A stretch of 25,511 nucleotides of DNA from an uncultured Nitrososphaerales archaeon (GTDB taxonomy: Archaea > Thermoproteota > Nitrososphaeria > Conexivisphaerales > CALBHZ01). The notes beneath the pieces were generated by a model. The model was not told where the DNA came from and ran no database searches. It saw only the letters and a program-made list of their open reading frames with translations. The stretch lies in contig CAYQTV010000001.1 of the NCBI GenBank assembly GCA_964420525.1, forward strand, positions 1 to 25,511. The letters are read 5' to 3'. Below, one piece after another: positions 3,679 to 18,875 of the stretch (its first letter is position 1; every line of letters begins with the position of its first letter). Both the position numbers and the translations under genes were made by a program.

Positions 3679-4977
3679 GTGCAAATAAGAAGTTATAGAG
3701 GAAAAGGGAGAAGGGTACTAGACGCTTTTAACGTAGAGGTCGGAGATCGGATCATCGTTAAAACCGATAAAGATGAATTTGAAGGGATTTTAATGCCTAG
3801 ATATGAATTTGCTGATGAGGAACATATAGTAATTAAATTAAAAAATGGGTATAACATCGGAATTAAAGTAGATGAAATAAGGTCGATAACCGTAGTTGAG
3901 AAGGCTAAGGTCATAGAAAGGAGGAGGGAAACGGTAGGAGAGGTCAAGGGCCTTCCTAAAGTTAAGTTAATTGGCACTGGCGGAACGATAGCTAGCAGAG
4001 TTGATTATAGAACTGGAGGAGTCTCGCCAGCTATGTCGGTTGAAGACCTTTATACACTAGTGCCGGAGCTGAAAGACATCGCATCATTATCTGTAGAGAA
4101 CTTATTTAATGTTTACAGCGAGAATATGACGGTTAGACATTGGGAAGAAATTGCTAAAGCGGTTTACAGAGCTTTTAAATCCGGCTTTAACGGCATCGTT
4201 ATTGCCCATGGAACCGATACTATGCACTATACCGCATCAGCTCTCTCTTTCGCCTTAGAAAATCCACCAGGTCCGGTAGTATTAGTTGGTGCGCAGAGAT
4301 CCTCTGATAGACCCTCTAGTGACGCGGCTACGAACTTAATTTCAGCCGTTAAAGTCGCAAGCCACAAAGATATTTCGGGGGTTTTTGTATCAATGCATTT
4401 AGGCTTAGATGATGATATTATAGCGTTACATCGAGGGGTTAGAGTTAGGAAAAATCACACAAGTAGAAGAGACGCTTTTAAATCCATAGACGAAGAACCT
4501 CCTATAATCGTTCAAAATGGAAAGGTGATAATAAGAAGAAAAATCCCAAGGACGAATGGAGAGTTTAAAGTGATACCGAAGTTTTCAAGTAAGGCCTATC
4601 TCTTAAAGTTCTTCCCTAATCAGAATCCGGAGATCATAAGCTATCTAGTTGATAAAGGGTATGAGGCCATAATACTTGAAGGAACGGGTCTAGGACACGT
4701 ATCGACTGAGATGATACCATATCTAAAGGAAGCTATAGATAAAGGGATCTTCATAGGTATGACCTCTCAATGTATATGGGGAAGCGTAAGAATGACGGTT
4801 TATGAAACAGGAAGAGAACTCCTAAAGATAGGCGTAACTCCACTTGGAAGCATGCTTGCAGAAACTGCCTTAGTTAAAGCGATGTGGCTCTTAGGGCAGG
4901 GATTTAGAGGAGAGAAGCTCGAGAAGTTAATGGTTCAGAACTTGAGGGGAGAGATGGTAGATAGGAGGCTGGTATGA
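3679..4977 (+). CDS. gatD: Glutamyl-tRNA(Gln) amidotransferase subunit D
   Basis: N-terminal GatD domain (KLKNGYNIG), asparaginase motifs GTGGTIASR and HGTDTM, plus QRSSDRPSSD and SRRDAF. ATGA overlap with gatE. Confidence 0.96.
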   Translation: MQIRSYRGKGRRVLDAFNVEVGDRIIVKTDKDEFEGILMPRYEFADEEHIVIKLKNGYNIGIKVDEIRSITVVEKAKVIERRRETVGEVKGLPKVKLIGTGGTIASRVDYRTGGVSPAMSVEDLYTLVPELKDIASLSVENLFNVYSENMTVRHWEEIAKAVYRAFKSGFNGIVIAHGTDTMHYTASALSFALENPPGPVVLVGAQRSSDRPSSDAATNLISAVKVASHKDISGVFVSMHLGLDDDIIALHRGVRVRKNHTSRRDAFKSIDEEPPIIVQNGKVIIRRKIPRTNGEFKVIPKFSSKAYLLKFFPNQNPEIISYLVDKGYEAIILEGTGLGHVSTEMIPYLKEAIDKGIFIGMTSQCIWGSVRMTVYETGRELLKIGVTPLGSMLAETALVKAMWLLGQGFRGEKLEKLMVQNLRGEMVDRRLV

Positions 4978-6878
4978 TGTCCTTCGATCCGTATGCAATA
5001 GGTCTAAAGGTAGGAATAGAGCTTCATAGACAGCTTAATACGAAGGAGAAGCTGTTTTGTAAATGTCCAACTAGGAAACCTGAGGAAGAAAGGGAAAGGA
5101 AATTCTATAGAATGCTTAGGGTAGCTGAAAGCGAATTGGGAGAAATAGATCCAGCGGCTAAATTTGAAGCTGAAAAGGGAATACATATAGAGTACATAGC
5201 GGGCGAGAAAAGCAGCTGTTTAGTAGAAGCAGATGAAGAACCTCCTCATGATTTAAATCAAGAAGCTTTAGATTCCGCCTTAATAATAGCGCTTGCTCTC
5301 CACTCTAACATAGTAAATGAGGTACATGTGATGAGAAAGATAGTTATAGACGGTAGCAATACGACGGGCTTTCAGAGAACAATGGTTGTCGGGATAGGAG
5401 GATATTTAGAGGCAGCGGGAAGAAAGATAGGAGTTCAAACCATTTGTTTAGAAGAAGATGCTGCAAGACTTATGGAGAAAAGGGAGAATCTTAAGGTATA
5501 CCATTTAGATAGGCTAGGAGTTCCTCTTGTAGAAATCTCGTTAGAGCCTGTAACCGCAACACCAGAGGAAATAGAGGAAATAGCCTTAACTTTAGGAAGA
5601 CTTCTAAAGGCTAGCAGAAGAGTTGCGAGAGGTCTAGGAACCGTTAGACAGGACGTAAATATATCGATAGAAGGAGGAGGTATAGTAGAGGTTAAGGGCG
5701 TTCAAAAACCCGACTTAGTTAGAAAGGTAGTTTATTTTGAAGTTAAGAGACAGCTTTGGCTTAAAGAACTTGCCTCTATATTAAGACAAAGAGGGGTTAA
5801 AGAAGAGGACTTAAATGTCGAACCGATTGACGTGACCCATGTATTTAAAGAAACTAAATCGACCATAATTCAAAAGGCTATAAGGAAAGGAGGGAAGATA
5901 TTAGCGTTAAAAGCGAAGGGGTTTAAAGGTCTGCTAATTGAAGAACCCATAGAGGGGGCCAGATTAGGTAAGGACCTAGCGGATCTCGCTAAATTATTCG
6001 GTTTTGCCGGCATTTTACACTCTGACGAACTTCCGGCGTTCGGCATATCTATTAGTGAAATCGAGGAAATAAGGAAAATACTGGAAATGGATGATAACGA
6101 TGCCTTCATTTTACTAGCTGGAGATTATGAGAAGGGAATGAAGTGTATGTTAGAGATAAGGGAGAGATTGAAAAAAGCACTCTACGGTCCTCCATCTGAG
6201 ACAAGAGCCCCTACGCCAGATGGGAAGACGAGGTTTTCTAGGCCCAGACCAGGATCAGCGAGAATGTACCCGGAAACAGACATCCCTCCGATTCCAATAA
6301 CTAAGGAAAGACTTGATAGGCTCTCTAAACTTGTTCCTAAACCTTGGAAGGAAATGGTAAAGGAATATGCCGAGAGGTACAGAATAAACTATAAGTTAGC
6401 AGAGCAACTCCTTGATTCGGAAAGGAACGTTCTATTTGAAGAAATTCTCGGCAAAGTGAAGTTAGCTCCAACATTTATAGCGGCTACTCTAACCGAAACG
6501 ATAACTATGCTGGAGAGGGAGGGATTAGACGTATCTAAGCTAAGTGATGAAGATATCGAAGAAATATTCCTCTCCGTAGATAAGGGAGAAGTAGCCAAAG
6601 AAGCCATACCTGAAATCATGAGAGCTATTCTTAGCGGAAAGGCTTCGTCGGTGAAAGAAGCTATTGAAGTATTAGGTATTAAGGGCATTAGTGATGACGA
6701 ACTTATTGAGATAGTTAAGGAAGTAATAAAAAGTAATGCTGAAGTGGTTAGAGAAAGAGGAATGGGAGCCTTTGGGTTAATTATGGGAAGGGTGATGGCT
6801 AAGGTTAGAGGTAAAGCAGATGGAGCGAAGGTAAGCAAGATAGTGAAGGAGATTTTACAAAACGAAAGTAAACGATAG
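4974..6878 (+). CDS. gatE: Glutamyl-tRNA(Gln) amidotransferase subunit E
   Basis: GLKVGIELHRQL, KLFCKCP, RKIVIDGSNTTGFQRT, LEEDAAR, RGLGTVRQDVNISI, RPRPGSARMYPETDIP and a C-terminal Yqey-like tail. Confidence 0.97.
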   Translation: MMSFDPYAIGLKVGIELHRQLNTKEKLFCKCPTRKPEEERERKFYRMLRVAESELGEIDPAAKFEAEKGIHIEYIAGEKSSCLVEADEEPPHDLNQEALDSALIIALALHSNIVNEVHVMRKIVIDGSNTTGFQRTMVVGIGGYLEAAGRKIGVQTICLEEDAARLMEKRENLKVYHLDRLGVPLVEISLEPVTATPEEIEEIALTLGRLLKASRRVARGLGTVRQDVNISIEGGGIVEVKGVQKPDLVRKVVYFEVKRQLWLKELASILRQRGVKEEDLNVEPIDVTHVFKETKSTIIQKAIRKGGKILALKAKGFKGLLIEEPIEGARLGKDLADLAKLFGFAGILHSDELPAFGISISEIEEIRKILEMDDNDAFILLAGDYEKGMKCMLEIRERLKKALYGPPSETRAPTPDGKTRFSRPRPGSARMYPETDIPPIPITKERLDRLSKLVPKPWKEMVKEYAERYRINYKLAEQLLDSERNVLFEEILGKVKLAPTFIAATLTETITMLEREGLDVSKLSDEDIEEIFLSVDKGEVAKEAIPEIMRAILSGKASSVKEAIEVLGIKGISDDELIEIVKEVIKSNAEVVRERGMGAFGLIMGRVMAKVRGKADGAKVSKIVKEILQNESKR

Positions 6879-6972
6879 ATCAATTATTGAAAAAGAGGGA
6901 AAACATTGTATATGTGTAAAGAAGGTATAAATTAGAAAAAGATATTTACATATTAAGTATATACGTTTGCAT

Positions 6973-7419
6973 ATGGAACAGGAAACTGTGAGGATTAGAC
7001 TTAAAGTTAATGCAAACGAGATTGAAATAGAAGCAACTAAGAACTCTTTGAAAGACGTAGTTCAAGTAATTCCAGATATACTTAGGAACATCTCTTCCCT
7101 CCCTCCTAAGCCGTCCATCGAGCCTGTAAAGAGAGAATCCCAAGTAGAAGAAAAGATGGAGGAACTTCCGGAAATTAAGATAGAGAAGGATGAATCGTTA
7201 CCGTCGGTTATAACTAAGCTATTTGCAACTGAATGGGGAAGAAAGCCTAGGAAGCTAATGGACGTTAAGGAAGCTCTAGAATCTTATGGTTTGATATATC
7301 CGAGACAATCAGTTGCCGTAGCTCTCTTAAGGCTCGCTAAGGATGGTAAATTGAGAAGGTTTAAAGGTCCTGATGAGGAATACGTTTATACGGCATCAAC
7401 GGTTTTATTAGCTAAGTAG
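6973..7419 (+). CDS. Hypothetical protein: N-terminal beta-hairpin/helix module, linker, C-terminal winged helix-turn-helix
   Basis: ATG at 6973, in frame with the TTG start at 6967. C-terminus EWGRKPRKLMDVKEALESYGLIYPRQSVAVALLRLAKDGKLRR...YVY has a wHTH pattern. AT-rich promoter-like sequence lies upstream. Confidence 0.75.
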   Translation: MEQETVRIRLKVNANEIEIEATKNSLKDVVQVIPDILRNISSLPPKPSIEPVKRESQVEEKMEELPEIKIEKDESLPSVITKLFATEWGRKPRKLMDVKEALESYGLIYPRQSVAVALLRLAKDGKLRRFKGPDEEYVYTASTVLLAK

Positions 7420-7427
7420 GTGGTAAG

Positions 7428-7922
7428 ATGGAGGAAGCTGTTAAAGTGGAGATAGCCTACGGAGATGTTAAGGCCCAGTTCACCGGAAAACCTGAGGAAG
7501 TTGCTGAGCTCGTGAATAGATTCTTAGCTCAAAATCTACCTACTTATGCTTTAGCTAAGAAGCTCTACTTAAACTACGATCTAAAGGACCTAACTGAAAT
7601 GTTTTCCGATTACATAAGAATAACGCCAGAAGGTCCCAGAGTTATAACTGAGAAGAAGCTAAGCGATAAATTAGTCATAGCTCTCCAATTAACTGCAAAT
7701 AGAATAGCGTATGAAACTGGATCGAGTAGCGCTGATCATATGACGGTACAGGAGCTTGAATCCGCTACCTCAATTAATCCTAAATCGATAAGCTCTAGGT
7801 TAAGCGAGTTAGTTAAAGCTGGACATGTAAAGAGGATAACGGGAAAGACGGGAACGTCGTATAAAATAACGACGTTAGGGATAAAATGGCTTTACGAAAC
7901 CCTGAAGACTAAAGGACGCTAG
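7428..7922 (+). CDS. Hypothetical protein with C-terminal winged helix-turn-helix
   Basis: GGTGGT RBS before the ATG. C-terminus MTVQELESATSINPKSISSRLSELVKAGHVKR...YKITTLG is ArsR/MarR-like wHTH. Confidence 0.8.
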   Translation: MEEAVKVEIAYGDVKAQFTGKPEEVAELVNRFLAQNLPTYALAKKLYLNYDLKDLTEMFSDYIRITPEGPRVITEKKLSDKLVIALQLTANRIAYETGSSSADHMTVQELESATSINPKSISSRLSELVKAGHVKRITGKTGTSYKITTLGIKWLYETLKTKGR

Positions 7923-8329
7923 GGAGGAGGTCTTTTCTGGACGTACCTGTAGTTTCTCGGACTTCCTTCTCTACTTAATATTCCCTCTCTTACTAAATCC
8001 GTAAGGGTATGGGAAATAGCGGATTTATCGTAGTGATATCCTCTTCTCCCCAATTCAGCATCTACCTCGGATAGCGTCCTATGCTCGGAAAACCAACCTT
8101 CCTTCCATAGATCTTCCAAAAGGCTTTTACACGTTACCCCCTTAGAAGTTATTGAGCGTTCAACAATTGGGACGGTTTGAGTACCTAAGCCGGCTAAGAC
8201 TTTAGAAATTACATCAGTGAGTCTACTTTCAGGACACTCTATCTCTATTTCCCAAGCCCCTCTTTTCAATTTGACCTTTACCTTCTCTTCCTTCTCATTT
8301 TTGTTGTTGTTATTGTTCAAGTTGAGCAA
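7919..8329 (-). CDS. Hypothetical protein: beta-hairpin/helix module plus C-terminal wHTH (probable paralog of 6973-7419)
   Basis: KVKVKLKRGAWEIEIEC N-module and GWFSEHRTLSEVDAELGRRGYHYDKSAISHTLTDLVREGILSREG...YRY wHTH. Start is uncertain (TTG 8329 or TTG 8320). Confidence 0.75.
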   Translation of the reverse strand: MLNLNNNNNKNEKEEKVKVKLKRGAWEIEIECPESRLTDVISKVLAGLGTQTVPIVERSITSKGVTCKSLLEDLWKEGWFSEHRTLSEVDAELGRRGYHYDKSAISHTLTDLVREGILSREGSPRNYRYVQKRPPP

Positions 8330-8377
8330 TATTTATAAGCCCCCTCCACCTACCCTATTGTTGATCAAGTTGAACAA
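8313..8377. promoter_or_regulatory. Two copies of a 17-bp pseudo-palindrome TTG(T/A)TCAAGTTGA(G/A)CAA flanking a TATA-like element; candidate operator
   Basis: TTGTTCAAGTTGAGCAA at 8313-8329 and TTGATCAAGTTGAACAA at 8361-8377 are 15/17 identical, with centres 48 bp apart. ATTTATAAG at 8331-8339 lies between them, in the divergent region between the third wHTH gene and nurA. Confidence 0.65.
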
Positions 8378-8435
8378 CCAATTAAATCTTCCTATTGTTA
8401 ACGGCCTTTCTAACCTTCTATCCGTATTTGATCGT

Positions 8436-9359
8436 ATGGACGTTAGAAAATTAGAGGGCAAAAAGGTATTATTCGTACCTTCAGAGGATCGGGAAGTCAG
8501 ACCTATCCAAGGATGGGATATAATATCGTTGGATGATCCGGTGATTATTAGCGAGGAAGGCGAGAGAGGTTCGATAGTTGCTATAGATTCCAGCGTCGTT
8601 CATATAGCTGAAACTGATGACGGTTCAGTGTACGGAGCGAAGGCAGCGCTCGTCGTCTATGATAGAGGAGAACGGGAAATACATAGAGTAGGACCTTTTC
8701 TATTATACCTTAATGAAGAAAATGCAAGGGAGATAGCTTCCTGTTTTAATAGCAATGTACATCCGATGTTGCTCCTATTAGATAGACAAGCAGCTATGAA
8801 GAGCATGAGGTTAATCATGGAAAGGTCCCTTGCCTCTTTCGCAATATCATACTTCAAGTCCAGGTTTATTTTGCTTGATGGTTCATTGAGGTTATCCGTC
8901 TTCGAACCTAAATGGGCGAGCTTAGATATACTGCTCTCGGAAAGCAAGGATGCTACATTAGTTGGAATAAGCAAAGCGAGTAGGATAAAGCTCGTGAACA
9001 GGCTCGCTTCCTCAATATCTAAAGTCGATTTACCTTGTTACATAGAAATAACGAAGCTTATAAAGTCCCTAATCAGGCCATCGCTAGGAAGAAGCTACTT
9101 AGTAAAACTAGATAGGGGAGGTCTCGTCTTCAGGATAGATCTACCATCTCATGTAGATCCAAGTAAAGCCTTTCCATCTCTCAGGAATAGCGATATACTG
9201 AACAATGGCTATCCGGAATCACTCAAAATTGCTCATCTAGTTTCAATATTTACGCAAGCCGAAATTGCGGGTGTAAAGGGGATAATAGCGTCTAAAGCTA
9301 GAGACGTATTAATGACCGAGGATATCAGAAGGCTCGTTCTTGGCTCACTAAGATTGTAG
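8436..9359 (+). CDS. nurA: NurA-family 5'-3' nuclease
   Basis: IVAIDSS, FILLDGSL, VGISK and GYPESLKIAH motifs. ATG at 8436 is preferred because the track start at 8217 overlaps the opposite-strand gene. Directly upstream of a HerA-like ATPase. Confidence 0.85.
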   Translation: MDVRKLEGKKVLFVPSEDREVRPIQGWDIISLDDPVIISEEGERGSIVAIDSSVVHIAETDDGSVYGAKAALVVYDRGEREIHRVGPFLLYLNEENAREIASCFNSNVHPMLLLLDRQAAMKSMRLIMERSLASFAISYFKSRFILLDGSLRLSVFEPKWASLDILLSESKDATLVGISKASRIKLVNRLASSISKVDLPCYIEITKLIKSLIRPSLGRSYLVKLDRGGLVFRIDLPSHVDPSKAFPSLRNSDILNNGYPESLKIAHLVSIFTQAEIAGVKGIIASKARDVLMTEDIRRLVLGSLRL

Positions 9360-10856: not shown

Positions 10857-10868
10857 ATTCGGCAAGTG

Positions 10869-10876
10869 TTATATAT
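10869..10876 (+). promoter_or_regulatory. Putative TATA box for the HTH regulator (probably leaderless mRNA)
   Basis: TTATATAT, 23-30 nt upstream of the in-frame ATG at 10899. Confidence 0.4.
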
Positions 10877-10898
10877 GCGTTCGACGAACGATTTTACG

Positions 10899-11597
10899 AT
10901 GAGCATAGAAGAAGATGAACTAGCTATAAAGATAGCGGGCCAGCTCGTTTTAAGTTCTAATCCTGGTAGAGAGATGAGGTTGTGGAGAGAGAGGGCAAAG
11001 ATAAATCAGAGCGCTGTAGCGAGAGAGATGGGCGTCTCTCCTTCCGTATTAAGCGATTATGAAAACGGGAGGAGGAAATCTCCTGGGGTGGGCTTCATTA
11101 AAAGATACGTGATGGCATTGCTGAAGCTCGATAGACAAGGACAAAGGATACTGAAACAAGTTCCAACTGTTGAAACAATAGGAGCTATTTTAGCTATAAG
11201 GGAGTTTGAAAGAGCGGTAACGGCTAAGACTATAATCGATACTTTGGATGCAGAGGTGCTTGCAGGACACGATATGCTTGAGTGTCCAATATACGGATAC
11301 ACGGTCTTAGATAGTATAAAAACGATATATTCCTTAACCGGCAACGAGTACTATAAGATATTCGGAAGGACGTCTGAAAGAGCTTTAGTATTCACTAGAG
11401 TTGGATTAGGTAGAAGTCCTATGGTTGCTGTAAGGGTTTCCCAATTAAAGCCTAGATTGGTCGTGGTGCACGGTCCAAAAGACGTAGATCCCTTAGCCAT
11501 AAAGCTAGCTCAAATGGAGGAAGTCATCTTAGCTTTATCTAAATTGAAAACTGAGGAGGAGATAATTAAGAACCTATCAGAGATAGGAAAGGCTTAA
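10899..11597 (+). CDS. Archaeal XRE-family HTH transcriptional regulator (COG1709-like)
   Basis: LWRERAKINQSAVAREMGVSPSVLSDYENGRRKSPG HTH followed by the conserved C-domain (GYTVLDSIKTI, ERALVFTRVGLGRSPMVAVRV). Confidence 0.85.
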   Translation: MSIEEDELAIKIAGQLVLSSNPGREMRLWRERAKINQSAVAREMGVSPSVLSDYENGRRKSPGVGFIKRYVMALLKLDRQGQRILKQVPTVETIGAILAIREFERAVTAKTIIDTLDAEVLAGHDMLECPIYGYTVLDSIKTIYSLTGNEYYKIFGRTSERALVFTRVGLGRSPMVAVRVSQLKPRLVVVHGPKDVDPLAIKLAQMEEVILALSKLKTEEEIIKNLSEIGKA

Positions 11598-12425: not shown

Positions 12426-14086
12426 TTAAGAAAACTTCTTCTTCAAGTACTCTACTAATTCATCAATTCTAACTCTTTCCTGTTCCCAAGTATCTCTATC
12501 TCTGACAGTAACGGATTCGTCCTTTAAGGTTTGGTAATCCACTGTAACTGCGAATGGTACGCCTATTTCGTCAACTCTCGCATATCTCCTTCCTATTGAT
12601 CCTGATTCGTCATAAACCGTATAAAAACCCGCTTTATCTAACATTGCCTTAATCTCTAAGGCCTTTTCGGGAAGTCCATCTTTAGTTACCAATGGAAATA
12701 CAGCGACTTCTAATGGAGCGATCTCTCTAGGAAGCGATAGCACTACTCTATCTTCCTTAACTCGATATGCATAAGTAAGAGCCGTTAATATAAGGCGTTC
12801 AACTCCAAAACTCGGTTCAACTACATGGGGTATGAGCTTCTTCACTCTTTCCACGACTTCTTGTTTCTTTATTTCGTAAGTCCCCTTTTTTAGTTCCTCA
12901 TTATCGAGAAATGCCTTTCCATCTTTTATCTTAATCTTGGAACGATTCTTCAACACCTCCTTCCACCTATCGGGTATTCCGTCTTCACCTTATCTACTAT
13001 AAGCTCTACTTTTTCGACGATCTTTTTAATAGGCTTATCTAAAGGGATGCTAATCGTCAAATCTTCTCCGCTCTTCGCCATGTGAGATGACAAATCGTAA
13101 TCCGTTCTATATGCATGTCCCGCAACTTCAACCCATCCATAACCTTCTAAATAAACCTCATGATCGAAAGTTTGAGCAGAGTAGTGAGCTCTCTCCCCTT
13201 CCAACTTCGCCTTAAACCTCTGTTTATCATCTGGAACACCTAGCTTGTTGAGGAATATCTTCGAGAGAGCAAGGAAGTAAGCAAGCCATGGATGTTTAAC
13301 TAACCTTCTCTCAGCTGCTTCCTTAGCCGTCACCACAATAGGTTCCTCGGCTCCTTTCGCTACAAGCTCCTCCGTTAATAAAGGTAGCCTTACATCTTTA
13401 ACTCTATCTAGGTAAGGACAACCTTCTTCTGGATTCATAAACAACTCTACTTCCATCATGTTAAATTCTCTAAGCCTAACCATTGCCTGTCTAGGAGATA
13501 TCTCATTTCTAAAACCCTTTCCTATTTGAGCTACTCCCAATGGAAGTTTTCCCCTCGATATTTCGTAAAGCCTTTTAAATTCAACGAACATACCTTGGGC
13601 CGTTTCGGGTCTTAAAAATCCTTTATTTTCAGTATAAGGACCTATTTTAGTTTCAAACATAGTTAAAAACGGTCTAACGTTCCATTCCATAGATTTACAT
13701 TCAGGACATTTCACTTTTTCATTCAACATCTCTTTAATTTCATCTAGCGGAGTAGATTCAGGTATATCGATACCGACCTCTTTAAGCAAGTGATCAGCCC
13801 TATACTTCCTTTTACATTGTAAACATTCAGCCATAGGATCTTTAAAGCTCGCTACGTGACCAGAGGCTTCGAAGACTACATACGGAGCTATAACGGGAGA
13901 CTCTATTTCTATAAATCCATTTTCTTTAACGAATATCTTTCTCCATAGCTCAATTATCTTATCTCTGATCCTAACTCCCAAGGGACCTAAAACGTAAAAT
14001 CCCCCTACCCCACCATATATTTCGTAAGCTTGCCAAAAGAACCCTCTCCTTTTCGCTAAAAGCACTATCTTTTCCTGTAGGTTCAC
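12426..14086 (-). CDS. glyS: Glycyl-tRNA synthetase (homodimeric alpha2 type), interrupted by a one-base frameshift near 12950-12990
   Basis: 5' ORF 12950-14086 has AKRRGFFW, YEIYGG, LRPETAQGMF, FRNEISPRQ, RLREF and ERAHY. 3' ORF 12426-12956 has PHVVEPSFGVER plus the anticodon-binding domain SIGRRYARVDEIG. Adding one base in the CCC run at 12972-12974 gives a continuous EYPDRWKEVLKNRSK. Confidence 0.93.
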
Positions 14087-14188: not shown

Positions 14189-15505
14189 TTGGCCTCCTCT
14201 ACTTGGTTAGGATTGCATAGCGTAGATTGGTATCTCGATTTTGTCGACAAATCGTATAAACCGTCCGAAGATGAGCTTATCGTTCTGTACAGAATTGAAC
14301 CCGCTTTGGAGTTTACCGTTGAAGAAGCGGCTGGAAGGGTCGCGAGCGAAAGCAGCGTAGGGACTTGGACTACGTTGACCACGATAACGGAAAACGTCAA
14401 AAGGCTAATGGCAAAGGCCTTCCAATTTAAGGGAAAATACGTTAAGATTGCATATAAACCCGATTTATTCGAACCTGGGAATATCCCTCAAATCCTAAGC
14501 TCAATTGCCGGCAATGTGTTTGGAATGAAAGCTGTTCAGTACTTAAGACTAATGGACATAAGATGGCCTAGATCTATTATATCTCACTTTAAAGGTCCTC
14601 AGTTCGGTATAGATGGAATTAAGAAGATGTTAAAAATAGAAGATAGACCGATCCTTGCTACCGTTCCTAAACCTAAACTAGGCCTTACAAGCGAGGAACA
14701 TGCTAAGGTGGGATACGAAGTTTGGTTAGGAGGAATAGACCTCTTAAAGGACGACGAAAATTTGACCGACTTATCCTTTAATAAGTTTGAAGAGCGGTTA
14801 AGGCTCGTATTCAAGTATAGGGAGAAGGCAGAGAAGGAGACCGGAGAGAGGAAAAGCTACCTAGTAAATATAACGGGAGATGCGAGGAAAATGGAGAGGA
14901 GAGCGAAGTTGGTAAAGGAGTATGGAGGAGAATACGTTATGATCGACATTTTAACCGTTGGATGGGGAGCTTTACAAACGATGAGAGAGGTGTGTGAAGA
15001 TCTAAAGTTAGCTATTCACGCTCATAGAGCCTTCCACTCAGCCTTTACCAGAAATCCATACCACGGAATGTCGATGATAGTAGTTGGAGAACTCGCTAGA
15101 TTAGCCGGAGTCGACCAATTGCATATAGGAACGGTAGTTGGGAAACTCGATACTCCTAAGGAGGAGGTATTAACCCTAAAGGAGAAGCTAACTTCAGAAA
15201 AATTCGAAGAAAGGGAAGGTTATTTATCTACAGACTGGGGCTCTATAAAGCCCGTAGTTCCGGTTAGCTCTGGAGGCCTGCATCCTGGCTTAATACCCCA
15301 TTTGTTAAGCATTGTAGGAAACAACATTGTAATTCAGGTAGGAGGAGGAGTTCTTGGGCATCCAATGGGGCCGAGAGCTGGAGCTAAAGCAGTTAGAGAT
15401 GCTGTAGATGCGTACTTGAAGGGCATTTCTCTGAGAGAGTATAGTGAGAAGAGTAAAGAGTTGAAGGAAGCCTTAAAGAAGTGGGGAGAAGTATCCTATA
15501 AGTAA
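14189..15505 (+). CDS. rbcL: Form III ribulose-1,5-bisphosphate carboxylase (archaeal RuBisCO)
   Basis: ASESSVGTWT, TVPKPKLG, GGIDLLKDDENL (carbamylation motif), HAHRAFH, LHIGTVVGKL, SSGGLHP and QVGGGVLGHP are all intact. There is no in-frame ATG at the start, so the start is TTG 14189 or, more likely, TTG 14213. Confidence 0.96.
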   Translation: MASSTWLGLHSVDWYLDFVDKSYKPSEDELIVLYRIEPALEFTVEEAAGRVASESSVGTWTTLTTITENVKRLMAKAFQFKGKYVKIAYKPDLFEPGNIPQILSSIAGNVFGMKAVQYLRLMDIRWPRSIISHFKGPQFGIDGIKKMLKIEDRPILATVPKPKLGLTSEEHAKVGYEVWLGGIDLLKDDENLTDLSFNKFEERLRLVFKYREKAEKETGERKSYLVNITGDARKMERRAKLVKEYGGEYVMIDILTVGWGALQTMREVCEDLKLAIHAHRAFHSAFTRNPYHGMSMIVVGELARLAGVDQLHIGTVVGKLDTPKEEVLTLKEKLTSEKFEEREGYLSTDWGSIKPVVPVSSGGLHPGLIPHLLSIVGNNIVIQVGGGVLGHPMGPRAGAKAVRDAVDAYLKGISLREYSEKSKELKEALKKWGEVSYK

Positions 15506-15507
15506 GG

Positions 15508-16263
15508 TTACATTTCGAAACCCAACTGAACTCTTCCAATAAGCTTAGCGATTCTTTCTAATGGTCCTAAATTCAATATTCCAGCCTCCTCATCTATAGC
15601 TATTACTTCGATATTTCCCATTTCCTTAGTGATGGGAGAAAGGTTATTCTCCATTAAAACGTCATATCCGAGAGCGTAAGGAGAGAAGGCCGGCAAAACA
15701 TAGACTTTCGTACTTCCGATAAATCCCTTAATTAAGCATCTAAACTTCGTTTTCTCTCCAAATTCCCCCCTAATCGTTATCGCGGGATGTACGTGTCCAA
15801 TAAATAAAGTCTTCACGTTTTCAAGACGGACTTCTTTGTGTCCATGAGCTATCGCACACTCACCTATCTTTAAAAGAGGATCATCTAAAGGAACTTTCAA
15901 TCTCTTCAATATGGGGATCAAGAAGTTATCGTGATTACCTCTAACGATCCTGATTTCTTCAACCGATCCCTTCAGGGAATTGATAAGATCGGTTACCTCT
16001 TCCCATTCTTCGTAACTCGCCTTAGCAAATTCGTGTTTCACATCTCCAGCGATAATTAATCTTTTGGGATTGTAATGTTCAGTAGCTTTTAGAATCATTT
16101 CCTTTACCTTATGGTACTGACTGATCGGTACATGTATACCAGAGCTTTCTAAAGCCTCTTCAAATCCAAGATGAAGATCAGCAATAATGATTGCTTCTAT
16201 ATCCTCGGCATAAACGCCGTACGGGAAAGCATAGAGGTTTTCATCTACCCTTTCTCCAATCAT
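15508..16263 (-). CDS. Calcineurin-like metallophosphoesterase (Lhr-associated, COG1407-like)
   Basis: ADLHLG, GDVKH, RGNHD, AHGH and GHVHP motifs. ATGA overlap with lhr. Confidence 0.92.
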   Translation of the reverse strand: MIGERVDENLYAFPYGVYAEDIEAIIIADLHLGFEEALESSGIHVPISQYHKVKEMILKATEHYNPKRLIIAGDVKHEFAKASYEEWEEVTDLINSLKGSVEEIRIVRGNHDNFLIPILKRLKVPLDDPLLKIGECAIAHGHKEVRLENVKTLFIGHVHPAITIRGEFGEKTKFRCLIKGFIGSTKVYVLPAFSPYALGYDVLMENNLSPITKEMGNIEVIAIDEEAGILNLGPLERIAKLIGRVQLGFEM

Positions 16264-18875
16264 TTCTTGCTTACTATAACTTGATTAACCATCTCATATA
16301 ACCTTTCAAGTACGTACCTTTTATCTTCCATTAATATCACATCGCTAAGCCCTTCTAATACTATATTATGAGCGAATGGTGAAGGGACCGGTACTTGTCC
16401 TAAATCTAAAACCTTAACCTTCCCTTCAGATATCCACTTTACTACTTTTTTCGCGTTTTCTATATCCATGTGATCTTCTAAAATCTCTCTGTAAGTCTCC
16501 TTTAAAATGGGAAAGTTCGGTATATTTTTCACTACGTTCAAGAGTACTTGAGAGCTTAACTGTTGTTTATCGACGCTTATTTCGTGCCCCTTATAATTCC
16601 TCAATATCATAAGCCCTCTCGTAGCTACATGTCTAAACCTCCTTTTCATTAATTCGGTATTAGCTACCGCTTCTCTTAATACCTCTTCAAGGTTTACTTC
16701 TACGAGGTCATTTAAACTAGCGATAGGTCTCACTCCCTTCGGATATATTAGTAAAAATCCATTATCATGGATAGCTATTCCTATGTTTCTCTTAAGCTTC
16801 TTACTAACTAAATAGGCAAGTGCTTTAGATAGAGCTTCGTTTACTCTCCTTCCATATAAGGTGTGAAAGACCTGCTCAGCTCTTCCTTCTTCATTCCAAA
16901 ACCACTCTTGAAAGATAACTTTATGAGAAGGAGAAGCTTCTATTCCCAGTGATCTCAAAAACTCCATCTGTTGTTTTATATAGCTTGCTATACCTTTTGC
17001 TGTATTCAAATCCGTATTACAAGTATTCATTATATATTCTATTACGTCCTTTCCCTTCCTCAACATATCCATTATTTTTCCTCTAAATTTGGAGACTTCT
17101 ATAGCTAAATCGAAGCTTAAGGGGAGCATCTCACTAAACCAGCTTGGCACCGTTGGCTTTTTATCGAAAGCAGGTCTAACTCTAGCTTCTAAACCTCTAC
17201 TGTTTACGAATTCGTAAACCCTTCCTCCTAATAAGAACCTATCTCTTGGCATTAACCTTTCCAAGAAATCTTCCTCTATGCTTCCGACGAGCTTGCCATC
17301 GATAGTCCTTACTTTAATATCAACTTCATCCGGTATCGTCCCTATATTCAAAGAATAGATAACCCTAGCATATTTTCCTCTTCTGCCAAACATCTTACCG
17401 TCAAACCAAATCTTTCCATACACCTTGTTTTCCTCTAAATTGAAACCTCCAGATAGATACTTCAATAAAGTTAAGAAATCTTCTTTTTTCAATGTATGGA
17501 ATGAATACGACCTCCTTATGAGCTCTAGCGCTTCCTCTACCTTCCATTTCTTTTCTATAGCCATTCCTAATACGTGTTGAGCTAGCACGTCCAAAGGGTT
17601 CTTAGGAATGTGAACTACATCTAAATGTCCCTTTAACGCTTCCTTTACCATAACGGCTACTTCTACCATATCATCTCTATCTACGCAGATAAACCTCCCC
17701 TTGCTTACCTCGTGAAGTCTATGCCCTGCTCTTCCTACTCTCTGTAAAGCTCTAGTAACCGATTTAGGGGATCCTATCTGAACCACTAAATCGATGCACC
17801 CTATATCTATTCCAAGCTCTAAGGACGTACTAGAAACTATAGCCTTAAGTTGTCCGTTCTTAAGCTTCTCCTCTACCTCAAATCTAACCCATCTGGATAA
17901 GGAGCCGTGATGAGCAGCTATCTCATCTTCTCTGATCATTTTAGTTCCTAACACAGATTTCAAATGGAATACAACCCTTTCTGTTCCACTCCTAGTATTG
18001 GTAAATATTAGAGTAGTCCTATGTTTTTCAATTAGTTCTGAGATCAACTCATACATCCTCTTGTTTACTTCATCGCTAGGCGTATGGATCAAGTCATCGG
18101 TCGGAGATAACACCTTCAGATCCTTCCCTTTAGCGAAGTTCGTATCGATTATTAAGCACGATCTAGGCCTTCCCTTTTCAAAACCTACTAAAAACTTAGC
18201 AACTTCGACTAAGGGATTTATAGTAGCCGAAAGACCGATTCGAATGATGCGATTTTCAACCATTTCCTGTAGCCTTTCCAGCGATAAGCTCAAATGGGAA
18301 CCTCTCTTATTTTCAACTAGGCTATGTATTTCATCAACTATTACCCATCTCACCTCCTTTAAAGCCTTCCTGAATTTAGGAGCATTTAAAATAATAGCTA
18401 AGCTCTCAGGAGTAGTTATTAAGATATGGGGAGGTTTTCTCAACATTTTCTGCCTTTCGTTCTGGGTAGTATCACCGGTTCTTACTTGATGTCTTATCTC
18501 CTGAACTTCTCTACCTTCCTTCGAAGCTAAAGCGTATATTTCATTTAGCGGTTTCTTTAAGTTTCTGTAAATGTCGTTATTTAAAGCTCTAAGAGGAGAT
18601 ACGTAAACAGCGTACACCTTATCTTCTAACTCTCCCTTCTCAGCTAAATTCATCAACTCACTTATTATGCTTAAGAAAGCTGTGAGGGTTTTACCTGTAC
18701 CGGTAGGGCTGGATACTAGAACGTTTTTCCCCTCCATGATAGGGATGACGGCCATTTTTTGAGGAGGGGTTAGGTCTTTAAAGTTCGATCTAAACCATTT
18801 TGATACCAAGGGGTTTAAACGCGATAAAACCTCCTCTAACGTATACTCTCTCTTTGCGAACTCTATGGCCGCCAT
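16260..18875 (-). CDS. lhr: Lhr-family SF2 helicase (Lhr-core size)
   Basis: SPTGTGKT, YVSPLRALNNDI, ITTPESL, VDEIH, GLSAT, HHGSLS, LELGIDIG, QRVGRAGH and GTIPDE. Confidence 0.95.
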   Translation of the reverse strand: MAAIEFAKREYTLEEVLSRLNPLVSKWFRSNFKDLTPPQKMAVIPIMEGKNVLVSSPTGTGKTLTAFLSIISELMNLAEKGELEDKVYAVYVSPLRALNNDIYRNLKKPLNEIYALASKEGREVQEIRHQVRTGDTTQNERQKMLRKPPHILITTPESLAIILNAPKFRKALKEVRWVIVDEIHSLVENKRGSHLSLSLERLQEMVENRIIRIGLSATINPLVEVAKFLVGFEKGRPRSCLIIDTNFAKGKDLKVLSPTDDLIHTPSDEVNKRMYELISELIEKHRTTLIFTNTRSGTERVVFHLKSVLGTKMIREDEIAAHHGSLSRWVRFEVEEKLKNGQLKAIVSSTSLELGIDIGCIDLVVQIGSPKSVTRALQRVGRAGHRLHEVSKGRFICVDRDDMVEVAVMVKEALKGHLDVVHIPKNPLDVLAQHVLGMAIEKKWKVEEALELIRRSYSFHTLKKEDFLTLLKYLSGGFNLEENKVYGKIWFDGKMFGRRGKYARVIYSLNIGTIPDEVDIKVRTIDGKLVGSIEEDFLERLMPRDRFLLGGRVYEFVNSRGLEARVRPAFDKKPTVPSWFSEMLPLSFDLAIEVSKFRGKIMDMLRKGKDVIEYIMNTCNTDLNTAKGIASYIKQQMEFLRSLGIEASPSHKVIFQEWFWNEEGRAEQVFHTLYGRRVNEALSKALAYLVSKKLKRNIGIAIHDNGFLLIYPKGVRPIASLNDLVEVNLEEVLREAVANTELMKRRFRHVATRGLMILRNYKGHEISVDKQQLSSQVLLNVVKNIPNFPILKETYREILEDHMDIENAKKVVKWISEGKVKVLDLGQVPVPSPFAHNIVLEGLSDVILMEDKRYVLERLYEMVNQVIVSKK

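Follow-up and report, generated by a model that had tools for sequence, protein, structure and literature searches.

HerA-NurA is the motor of DNA-end resection in archaea. In the Sulfolobales, the damage response is controlled by Orc1-2; outside this lineage, we know of nothing on how HerA-NurA is regulated or targeted. Several described groups of winged-helix proteins offer points of comparison for a candidate regulator of this motor. MarR-, PadR- and ArsR/SmtB-type factors carry a winged-helix fold, and in the MarR family the dimer helices flank it. BlaI, MecI and CopY (PF03965) are small two-domain winged-helix repressors, which act on paired dyads in a divergent promoter and regulate their own genes. 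In archaea, a dyad flush against the TATA box is the classic site of action of repressors. AspA, the centromere-binding protein of pNOB8, and the Sso10a-type proteins are small archaeal winged-helix dimers with roles in spreading or partition. In FtsK, a motor of the FtsK/HerA superfamily, direction is set by the γ domain, a winged helix which recognises KOPS. H-NS, Lsr2 and Rok are bridging proteins with an oligomerising N-terminus, a linker and a DNA-binding domain, which in Rok is a winged helix.

The locus described here encodes three small proteins, A, B and C, between gatD-gatE and nurA-herA of an uncultured archaeon (Table 1). The window, meaning the whole stretch of DNA analysed, comprises 25,511 nucleotides and originates from a metagenome-assembled genome (MAG) of 1.14 Mb in 226 contigs with a completeness of 69%. 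The stop codon of gene A lies 8 nt from the start of gene B, and gene C converges on gene B, the two stop codons overlapping by 4 nt. An earlier reading, made from the sequence alone, had described the third gene as convergent on the other two, and this layout is correct. On its other side, gene C is transcribed divergently from nurA, across an intergenic space of 107 bp. The ATG at 6973 is probably the start of gene A, with a TATA-like box at about 40 nt on its 5' side. One metatranscriptome contained only two short contigs of a related strain, one of them covering the A/B junction; this is too thin to use, and if anything it points away from high abundance.

Table 1. Location of the genes and promoter elements discussed in the text (positions in the window).
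Feature	Position	Strand	Basis or remark
gatD-gatE	3679-6878	+	flank before gene A
TATA-like element GGTATAAATT, A-B promoter	6925-6932	+	~40 nt 5' of ATG 6973
Gene A, 148 aa	6973-7419	+	ORF list; alternative start 6967
Gene B, 164 aa	7428-7922	+	ORF list
Gene C, up to 136 aa	7919-8329	-	ORF list
Operator site 1, 17-bp dyad of two TTGnnCAA boxes	8313-8329	.	exact match to TTGNNCAANTTGNNCAA
TATA element 1, adjoining site 1	8331-8340	.	sequence; direction inferred
Operator site 2, second 17-bp dyad	8361-8377	.	exact pattern match
TATA-like element 2 (AATTAAAT), adjoining site 2	8381-8388	.	48 nt 5' of nurA ATG
nurA, 307 aa from ATG 8436	8436-9359	+	Pfam PF09376 NurA, 33.2 bits vs cut-off 21
herA, 498 aa	9360-10856	+	Pfam PF01935 DUF87/HerA, 34.8 bits vs 23.2; PADLOC HerA models
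XRE-type HTH gene, 3' of herA	10866-11597	+	Pfam HTH_31 and HTH_3

The three proteins share an N-terminal module, consisting of a β-hairpin and a helix, and a C-terminal winged helix. The sequence-only reading had proposed a common N-module, linker and winged helix for all three, and AF2 models of B and C together with alignments support this architecture, with the modification that a folded insert takes the place of the linker in B. In A, the alignment places the hairpin and helix at residues ~1-38 and the winged helix at residues 76-148, joined by a long, acidic and Pro-rich linker (39-75). The model of B, based on 48 homologs, reaches a pLDDT of 86.5 and contains strands 5-11 and 14-20, helix 22-36 and a winged helix at residues 80-163, within a C-terminal domain of residues 73-164. 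Its insert (38-72) adopts a small fold of helices and a hairpin, with an invariant ITPEGPRV. For C (58 homologs, pLDDT 71.7), strands 16-23 and 26-33 and helix 34-50 come first; residues 51-63 are disordered and lead into the winged helix (67-131 in the model). An alignment of its homologs reveals a near-invariant recognition region in the winged helix and a C-terminal YVQK-PP. In A and C, strand 2 also bears a conserved Glu ladder, and B has the invariant PEGPR loop. Despite the common N-module, the recognition helices of A, B and C differ from one another.

Judged by sequence comparison, A and C are clear paralogs. Their full-length alignment yields a BLASTP E-value of 3e-6 and an hhalign probability of 98% (E 2.9e-13), which confirms the close match between the first and third protein noted before. 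At full length, B matches A with 71% in hhalign (E 3.8e-5), and against C its N-terminal 35 residues alone match (E 2e-3, probability 12.5%). Intermediate sequences were also found, i.e. single ORFs in other genomes that match two family profiles at once. Taken together, these scores and the two-profile ORFs make one superfamily including B likely, with less firmness than for A and C, and B is likely to be its more distant member.

Scans of A, B and C against Pfam, NCBIfam and PADLOC returned winged-helix matches that all remained below the cut-off. MarR_2 scored 19.6 bits for B and 16.0 bits for C against a cut-off of 27 and did not match A, and PF03965 reached 17.6 bits for C against 22.6. 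When the three alignments were used as profiles against the PDB, no match was significant; weak ones to MecI (E 0.3) and to Alba (E 0.2) were rejected. The fold search for each domain, suggested by the sequence-only reading, succeeded for one domain and not for the other. The winged helices of B and C match solved structures. Residues 73-164 of B, and only these, align to MarR/PadR/ArsR-type chains (VIA-align Z 9-10.9, rmsd 2-3.5 Å) and to AspA (4rs8, TM 0.77 by target; 5k5o, Z 9.9), and residues 64-134 of C align to Fur, BlaI/MecI and other winged-helix domains. A similarity of B to ESCRT-II/SNF8 (TM ~0.3) was dismissed as generic to winged helices. The N-module, by contrast, matched no solved structure in a Foldseek search of the PDB or a wide VIA-align search. 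AFDB clusters and the ESM Atlas returned winged helices or uncharacterised relatives, and an ESM Atlas feature search with residues 14-52 of C gave no usable match. A literature search found no paper on the family or on the operator motif described below. We regard A, B and C as members of a single family of winged-helix proteins with two domains, so far undescribed. It defines a new small N-terminal module, a β-hairpin plus helix unmatched among solved structures. A role as a defence system was considered and rejected, as the genes are single-copy, show vertical conservation between housekeeping neighbours and match no PADLOC system.

In comparison with the known groups, the family shares the C-terminal winged-helix fold of the MarR, PadR and ArsR/SmtB factors and, presumably, a dimeric state on dyad operators over core promoters. 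It differs from them in that its presumed dimeriser is a separate N-terminal β-hairpin and helix on a flexible linker, and in the clustering of its paralogs. The models of B and C show no flanking helical dimer domain of the kind seen in the MarR family (PF01047/PF12802). C resembles BlaI, MecI and CopY in its size, its two domains, and the paired dyads in a divergent promoter, and BlaI/MecI provide its best, sub-threshold matches in both sequence and fold. However, the domain order is reversed, since these repressors carry the winged helix at the N-terminus and a helical dimeriser at the C-terminus. No gene for a partner sensor-protease is present at the A/B/C locus. The C-terminal domain of B has the fold of AspA, but AspA and the Sso10a-type proteins are devoid of the N-terminal β-hairpin module and are found in other genomic contexts.

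The sequence-only reading had taken the three proteins for an uncharacterised archaeal chromatin or DNA-bridging family in the manner of H-NS, Lsr2 and Rok, possibly forming hetero-oligomers or filaments. On such a reading, oligomers joined by the N-module would coat or bridge DNA throughout the genome. The uncharacterised archaeal family with its N-module, linker and winged helix holds, and so does the likeness in domain order to the three bacterial proteins, which place an oligomerisation-like module, a flexible linker and a DNA-binding domain in the same sequence. Several paralogs could co-polymerise, and the winged helices of A and B are basic (pI ~9.9). The role in chromatin is nevertheless very improbable. 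The whole proteins are near-neutral to mildly basic (pI 7.8-9.1), the N-modules are acidic, the winged helix of C has a pI of only 7.9, and each of A, B and C is single-copy. The N-module consists of only ~35 residues and gives no hint of head-to-tail polymerisation; nothing in the analysis points to filaments or genome-wide binding. No homology to H-NS, Lsr2 or Rok was detected in Pfam, NCBIfam, or PDB sequence or fold searches, and the comparison is one of domain order alone. Unlike H-NS, Lsr2 and Rok, the family is tied to a single locus and to a specific, conserved putative operator pair that is unique in the MAG. The distribution is also odd for a core chromatin protein: within the same class, 19 near-complete genomes of an amoA-positive family were sampled, and the queries used found none of the three proteins beside NurA/HerA in them, the matches elsewhere being generic winged helices. 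NurA is present in these 19 genomes, and their HerA is a different one (21-25% identity). A, B and C look like local regulators and not like general chromatin proteins, and the significance of the locus is lower than had been hoped, as it does not represent a new archaeal chromatin system.

Database searches yielded 271 homologs of A, 578 of B and 684 of C, nearly all of them annotated as hypothetical and derived from Nitrososphaerota; none of the 271 homologs of A has a Pfam family. Among 1.8 billion representatives, the C profile retrieved 753 clusters at 50% identity, with Calditenuaceae and archaeon HR01 among the named members. Nitrososphaeria and Aigarchaeota-type lineages both contain the family, and look-alikes of the B type extend to Bathyarchaeota. 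In a sample of 151 genomes spread evenly over the phylum, A was found in 48 genomes, C in 58 and B in 74. The genes are also co-located in relatives, as the sequence-only reading had anticipated, the C / B / A arrangement being exactly as here in 41 of 79 species loci of Nitrososphaeria. B mostly occurs as two or three tandem copies, and many loci have the gene order A, B', B, C. This order suggests an ancestral set of four paralogs (A+B+B'+C), of which the present lineage would have kept three.

The shared 107-bp promoter of C and nurA contains two exact copies of a 17-bp dyad, TTGnnCAAnTTGnnCAA, each abutting a TATA-like element. The dyad pattern matches twice in the window, where 0.02 matches are expected, and the 1.14-Mb MAG has no exact copy besides these two. 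Matches with one mismatch are as numerous as those of a reversed-pattern control, and a search for a regulon found no further operator copies in the MAG above chance. As the dyads are palindromic and unique, they cannot serve as polar, genome-wide guide signals, unlike the sites of FtsK γ. In 75 promoters of C orthologs, site 1 has the consensus TATAAATGTTGCGCAAnTTGAACAA, which recurs in the loci of other families, and the consensus immediately 5' of C is TATAAATGTTGCGCAAnTTGAACAACAACA. The palindrome TTGCGCAA is found in 55 of these promoters, always straight after TATAAAT, and in most of the 75, as well as in the loci of other families, TATAAAT is directly followed by TTGCGCAAnTTGAACAA. A purine-rich, BRE-like stretch lies on the C-distal side of TATAAAT and TTGCGCAA. 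Most loci of Nitrososphaeria have a homolog of site 2, TTGnTCAnnTTGAnCAACAATAG, at a distance of ~50 nt from site 1; it is less conserved in other classes. TTTAWTTG is conserved at the position equivalent to TATA-like element 2, which is taken to be the nurA promoter.

These observations favour a reading, to which we assign a probability of roughly 55%, in which C acts as a dimer on the promoter it shares with the divergent nurA-herA and thereby also regulates its own gene, A and B being its paralogous partners. The dyads are specific, unique, deeply conserved and flush with TATA boxes, and together with the near-invariant recognition region they make C the prime candidate for the autoregulator; a dyad that overlaps the gene's own core promoter is a trait of autoregulatory repressors and is present for C. 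C would dimerise through its N-terminal β-hairpin and helix, for which the N-module is the obvious candidate, and two hairpins could form a four-stranded sheet. The two flexibly tethered winged helices of the dimer would then sit on the 17-bp dyads, and C would control its own transcription together with that of nurA-herA (-xre). The domain architecture, paralogy and synteny are direct results, as are the presence of the operator, its uniqueness and its conservation; binding of the operator by C, the geometry of the dimer and the sign of regulation are inferred from these features, as is a hetero-oligomer of A, B and C. A and B, as co-transcribed paralogs, would probably act with C or with each other via the N-module, as co-regulators or signal-dependent partners; judged from sequence, the clustering of the paralogs fits such hetero-oligomers. 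The trio may be regarded as belonging to an ancient gene module centred on nurA-herA. The fold matches to DNA-binding repressors, which are MarR and AspA in the case of B and Fur and BlaI/MecI in that of C, are in line with C as autoregulator. If correct, this deeply conserved family of winged-helix proteins, whose operator at the nurA-herA promoter is defined, would offer a compact system in which a single protein acts through a 17-bp site on a single target operon, and would raise the question why three to five paralogs are retained together.

An alternative is that the adjacency reflects inherited gene order. A different factor, for instance the XRE protein, would then bind the dyads, and A, B and C would be ordinary winged-helix regulators of unrelated targets. 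An XRE-type HTH gene follows herA here and in ~30 of 78 related Nitrososphaeria loci, and gatD-gatE likewise keeps its place beside A and B across families, which shows how well gene order as such is preserved around the locus. Yet the operator is kept in 20 loci of other families in which no XRE homolog was detected. In all classes, loci with a C-type gene conserve the element of TATA and TTGCGCAA; it was not found 5' of five clusters without C (L103, L104, L125-L127). This co-occurrence is partly trivial, as the operator sits in the promoter of C itself. Furthermore, C moves with nurA-herA after rearrangements: where clusters have split (G045, G109), C stays with nurA-herA, and the B genes with gatE-gatD. 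Inherited gene order is a rather improbable explanation, and an operator that tracks C and persists without a detected XRE gene supports C as the local autoregulator.

The linkage of C to nurA-herA is widespread. All 16 informative loci from other families of the phylum have C and nurA-herA in head-to-head orientation. Among the 78 species loci of Nitrososphaeria, HerA lies divergently 5' of C in 65 and NurA in 61, and in nine of the remaining loci the flank is too short to tell. HerA of two lineages (f16 and f25) is diverged or intein-bearing and was recognised by Pfam on the neighbouring proteins. Wherever a locus was fetched, the family adjoins HerA orthologs of 36-51% identity, the corresponding value for NurA being ~25%. 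C orthologs are 40-52% identical across the sampled families, so C is conserved as strongly as HerA and more than NurA, which is unusual for a local regulator and counts against the autoregulator reading. The same applies to the three to five paralogs, which are kept together in a manner unusual for regulators.

Three properties of the promoters also speak against C as autoregulator. First, the dyads are spaced by 48 bp, which is not a whole number of helical turns. Second, the start codon of C is odd. The frame contains no ATG and no GTG before strand 1; the only candidates 5' of this strand are TTG 8329 and TTG 8320, both within site 1 and both upstream of the transcription start expected from TATA 1. 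Where some C orthologs have GTG, the Val codons here are GTA and GTC. Gene C is either transcribed from the distal TATA or has a non-canonical start codon. Third, the A-B promoter contains no such operator, and no common palindrome was found in 43 non-redundant upstream regions of A. The main recurring feature of these regions is a TATA-like box at the same distance, and 10 of the 43 contain the weak word TTTGCA near the start. As a separate observation, palindromes with an ACGT core occur 5' of a few B operons in other lineages.

In some lineages, members of the family lie within the nurA-herA operon itself. In f3, a gene of the A type directly precedes nurA-herA on the same strand with an overlap of 4 nt, and in f7, f15 and f21 one to three genes of the B type do so, without a C gene; in all four, stop and start codons touch or overlap. 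Such arrangements suit stoichiometric partners better than regulators. A, B and C might be DNA-binding subunits or loaders of HerA-NurA, assembled through the N-module and tethering the translocase-nuclease to DNA, similar to the winged-helix γ domain of FtsK; they might cap the hexamer of HerA or the dimer of NurA, or form a ring on it. In that case, C would bind the operator as a side activity or to regulate itself. The maintenance of a three-to-five-paralog set over phylum-scale time and the conservation of C suit this proposal, and the Glu ladder of A and C and the PEGPR loop of B look like interaction surfaces. On the other hand, C is transcribed divergently from nurA and not together with it, a specific and unique operator favours regulation, and, to our knowledge, HerA-NurA complexes as characterised from Sulfolobus and Pyrococcus work without subunits of this kind. 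Subunits of the motor are considered unlikely, if more plausible than inherited gene order. The same tentative standing is given to a hetero-oligomeric winged-helix adaptor, ancestrally A+B+B'+C, that docks on HerA-NurA and provides DNA targeting or licensing. Within the autoregulator reading, the conserved clustering and the operon membership in some lineages leave A and B as co-regulators or as physical partners of HerA-NurA.

A combination of winged helix and HerA/FtsK-family ATPase, comparable to FtsK with its γ domain, is encoded side by side in the cellular genomes and is found fused in two further sequences. In P0423 and P0428, HerA/FtsK-like ATPases end in a coiled coil followed by a fused winged helix of the C type (48% identical). 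These fusions recall the FtsK γ domain and add to the case for motor subunits, although as an analogy they say little about the cellular proteins. The ATPases are distant, with ~21-28% identity to HerA over short stretches, and their neighbours are small unknown ORFs, so that no clean Rosetta stone is available. If the adaptor were real, it would be a trans-acting counterpart of FtsK γ, borrowed in addition as a fused domain by HerA-like ATPases of mobile elements, and would constitute a previously unknown layer of control in the processing of archaeal double-strand breaks. A third sequence, P0449, is a long protein without a family match that ends in a C-like winged helix and is encoded near HNH and methylase genes. 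The contexts of P0449 and of the two fusions are typical of mobile elements or viruses.

The start region of C, the minus-strand winged-helix gene beside nurA-herA, is unusual. In the C frame (window 8269-8329, minus strand), ATG and GTG are absent before the first beta-strand. The only in-frame candidates are TTG 8329 and TTG 8320, both of which are boxes of operator site 1, one of the two dyads between C and nurA, and both precede the point at which the adjacent TATA element would be expected to start transcription. The position occupied by GTG or ATG in some C orthologs reads ATA or GTA in several others. These features suggest that C is either transcribed from a more distant promoter or translated from a non-canonical start.

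The C protein is further marked by two cysteines, C32 at the end of strand 2 and C67 at the opening of the winged helix, each more than 90% conserved among Nitrososphaeria C orthologs (alignment A1). They are missing in its paralogs A and B, and in some C orthologs of other families (Ala in L090/L091). The pair may constitute a redox or metal switch.

C-type winged helices also occur within longer proteins. Two matches of the C-family profile search, P0423 (from L118) and P0428, are HerA/FtsK-like P-loop ATPases that contain a coiled coil and end in a C-type winged helix sharing 48% identity with that of C. P0449 (from L120) likewise ends in a C-like winged helix, while its N-terminal part has no family match. 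Both loci contain many small unknown ORFs, with L120 additionally carrying HNH and DNA methylase genes, and they resemble mobile elements or viruses of thaumarchaea into which the winged-helix domain has been recruited. In P0472 (811 aa, no Pfam match), five separate stretches match the C-family profile; this protein may consist of C-type winged helices repeated in tandem.

Where a cluster lacks C or is split, palindromes with an ACGT core, for example TTTACGTAAA or ACGTTAACGT, are a recurring feature 5' of B-type operons. These palindromes may serve as the operator of B-type proteins.

Coordinates of the features discussed
Feature	Location	Strand
C-type winged helix in longer protein	L118:7001-8500	
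C-like winged helix in longer protein	L120:5684-7336	
ACGT-core palindromes	L125:5300-5510	
ACGT-core palindromes	L104:7160-7360	
ACGT-core palindromes	L102:5120-5325	
ACGT-core palindromes	L127:830-1035	
HerA gene with intein	L094:2842-5352	-
Class II aminoacyl-tRNA synthetase (tRNA-synt_2b + HGTP_anticodon)	window 12426-14086	-
RuBisCO large subunit (RuBisCO_large_N + RuBisCO_large)	window 14189-15505	+
Lhr-type helicase (DEAD, Helicase_C, WH_Lhr, DEAD_assoc), then metallophosphoesterase	window 15508-18875	-

An intein (Pfam Intein_splicing, located within DUF87) interrupts the HerA gene that adjoins the C-type gene in one family of the phylum, and for this reason a search with a plain HerA protein did not detect that gene.

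Elsewhere in the window, the Lhr-type helicase and metallophosphoesterase genes lie 5-8 kb from nurA-herA; in L108, from one other family, herA is directly followed by an Lhr gene. The class II aminoacyl-tRNA synthetase is encoded by a single gene of 554-560 aa in relatives, but in the window a frameshift near 12971-12975 breaks it in two, with tblastn matches in frames -1 and -3. Either the MAG was misassembled at this point or the gene is a pseudogene. The RuBisCO is probably of the form III/AMP-pathway type, and related contigs of soil thaumarchaea (L006-L008) likewise have its large-subunit gene close to the cluster.
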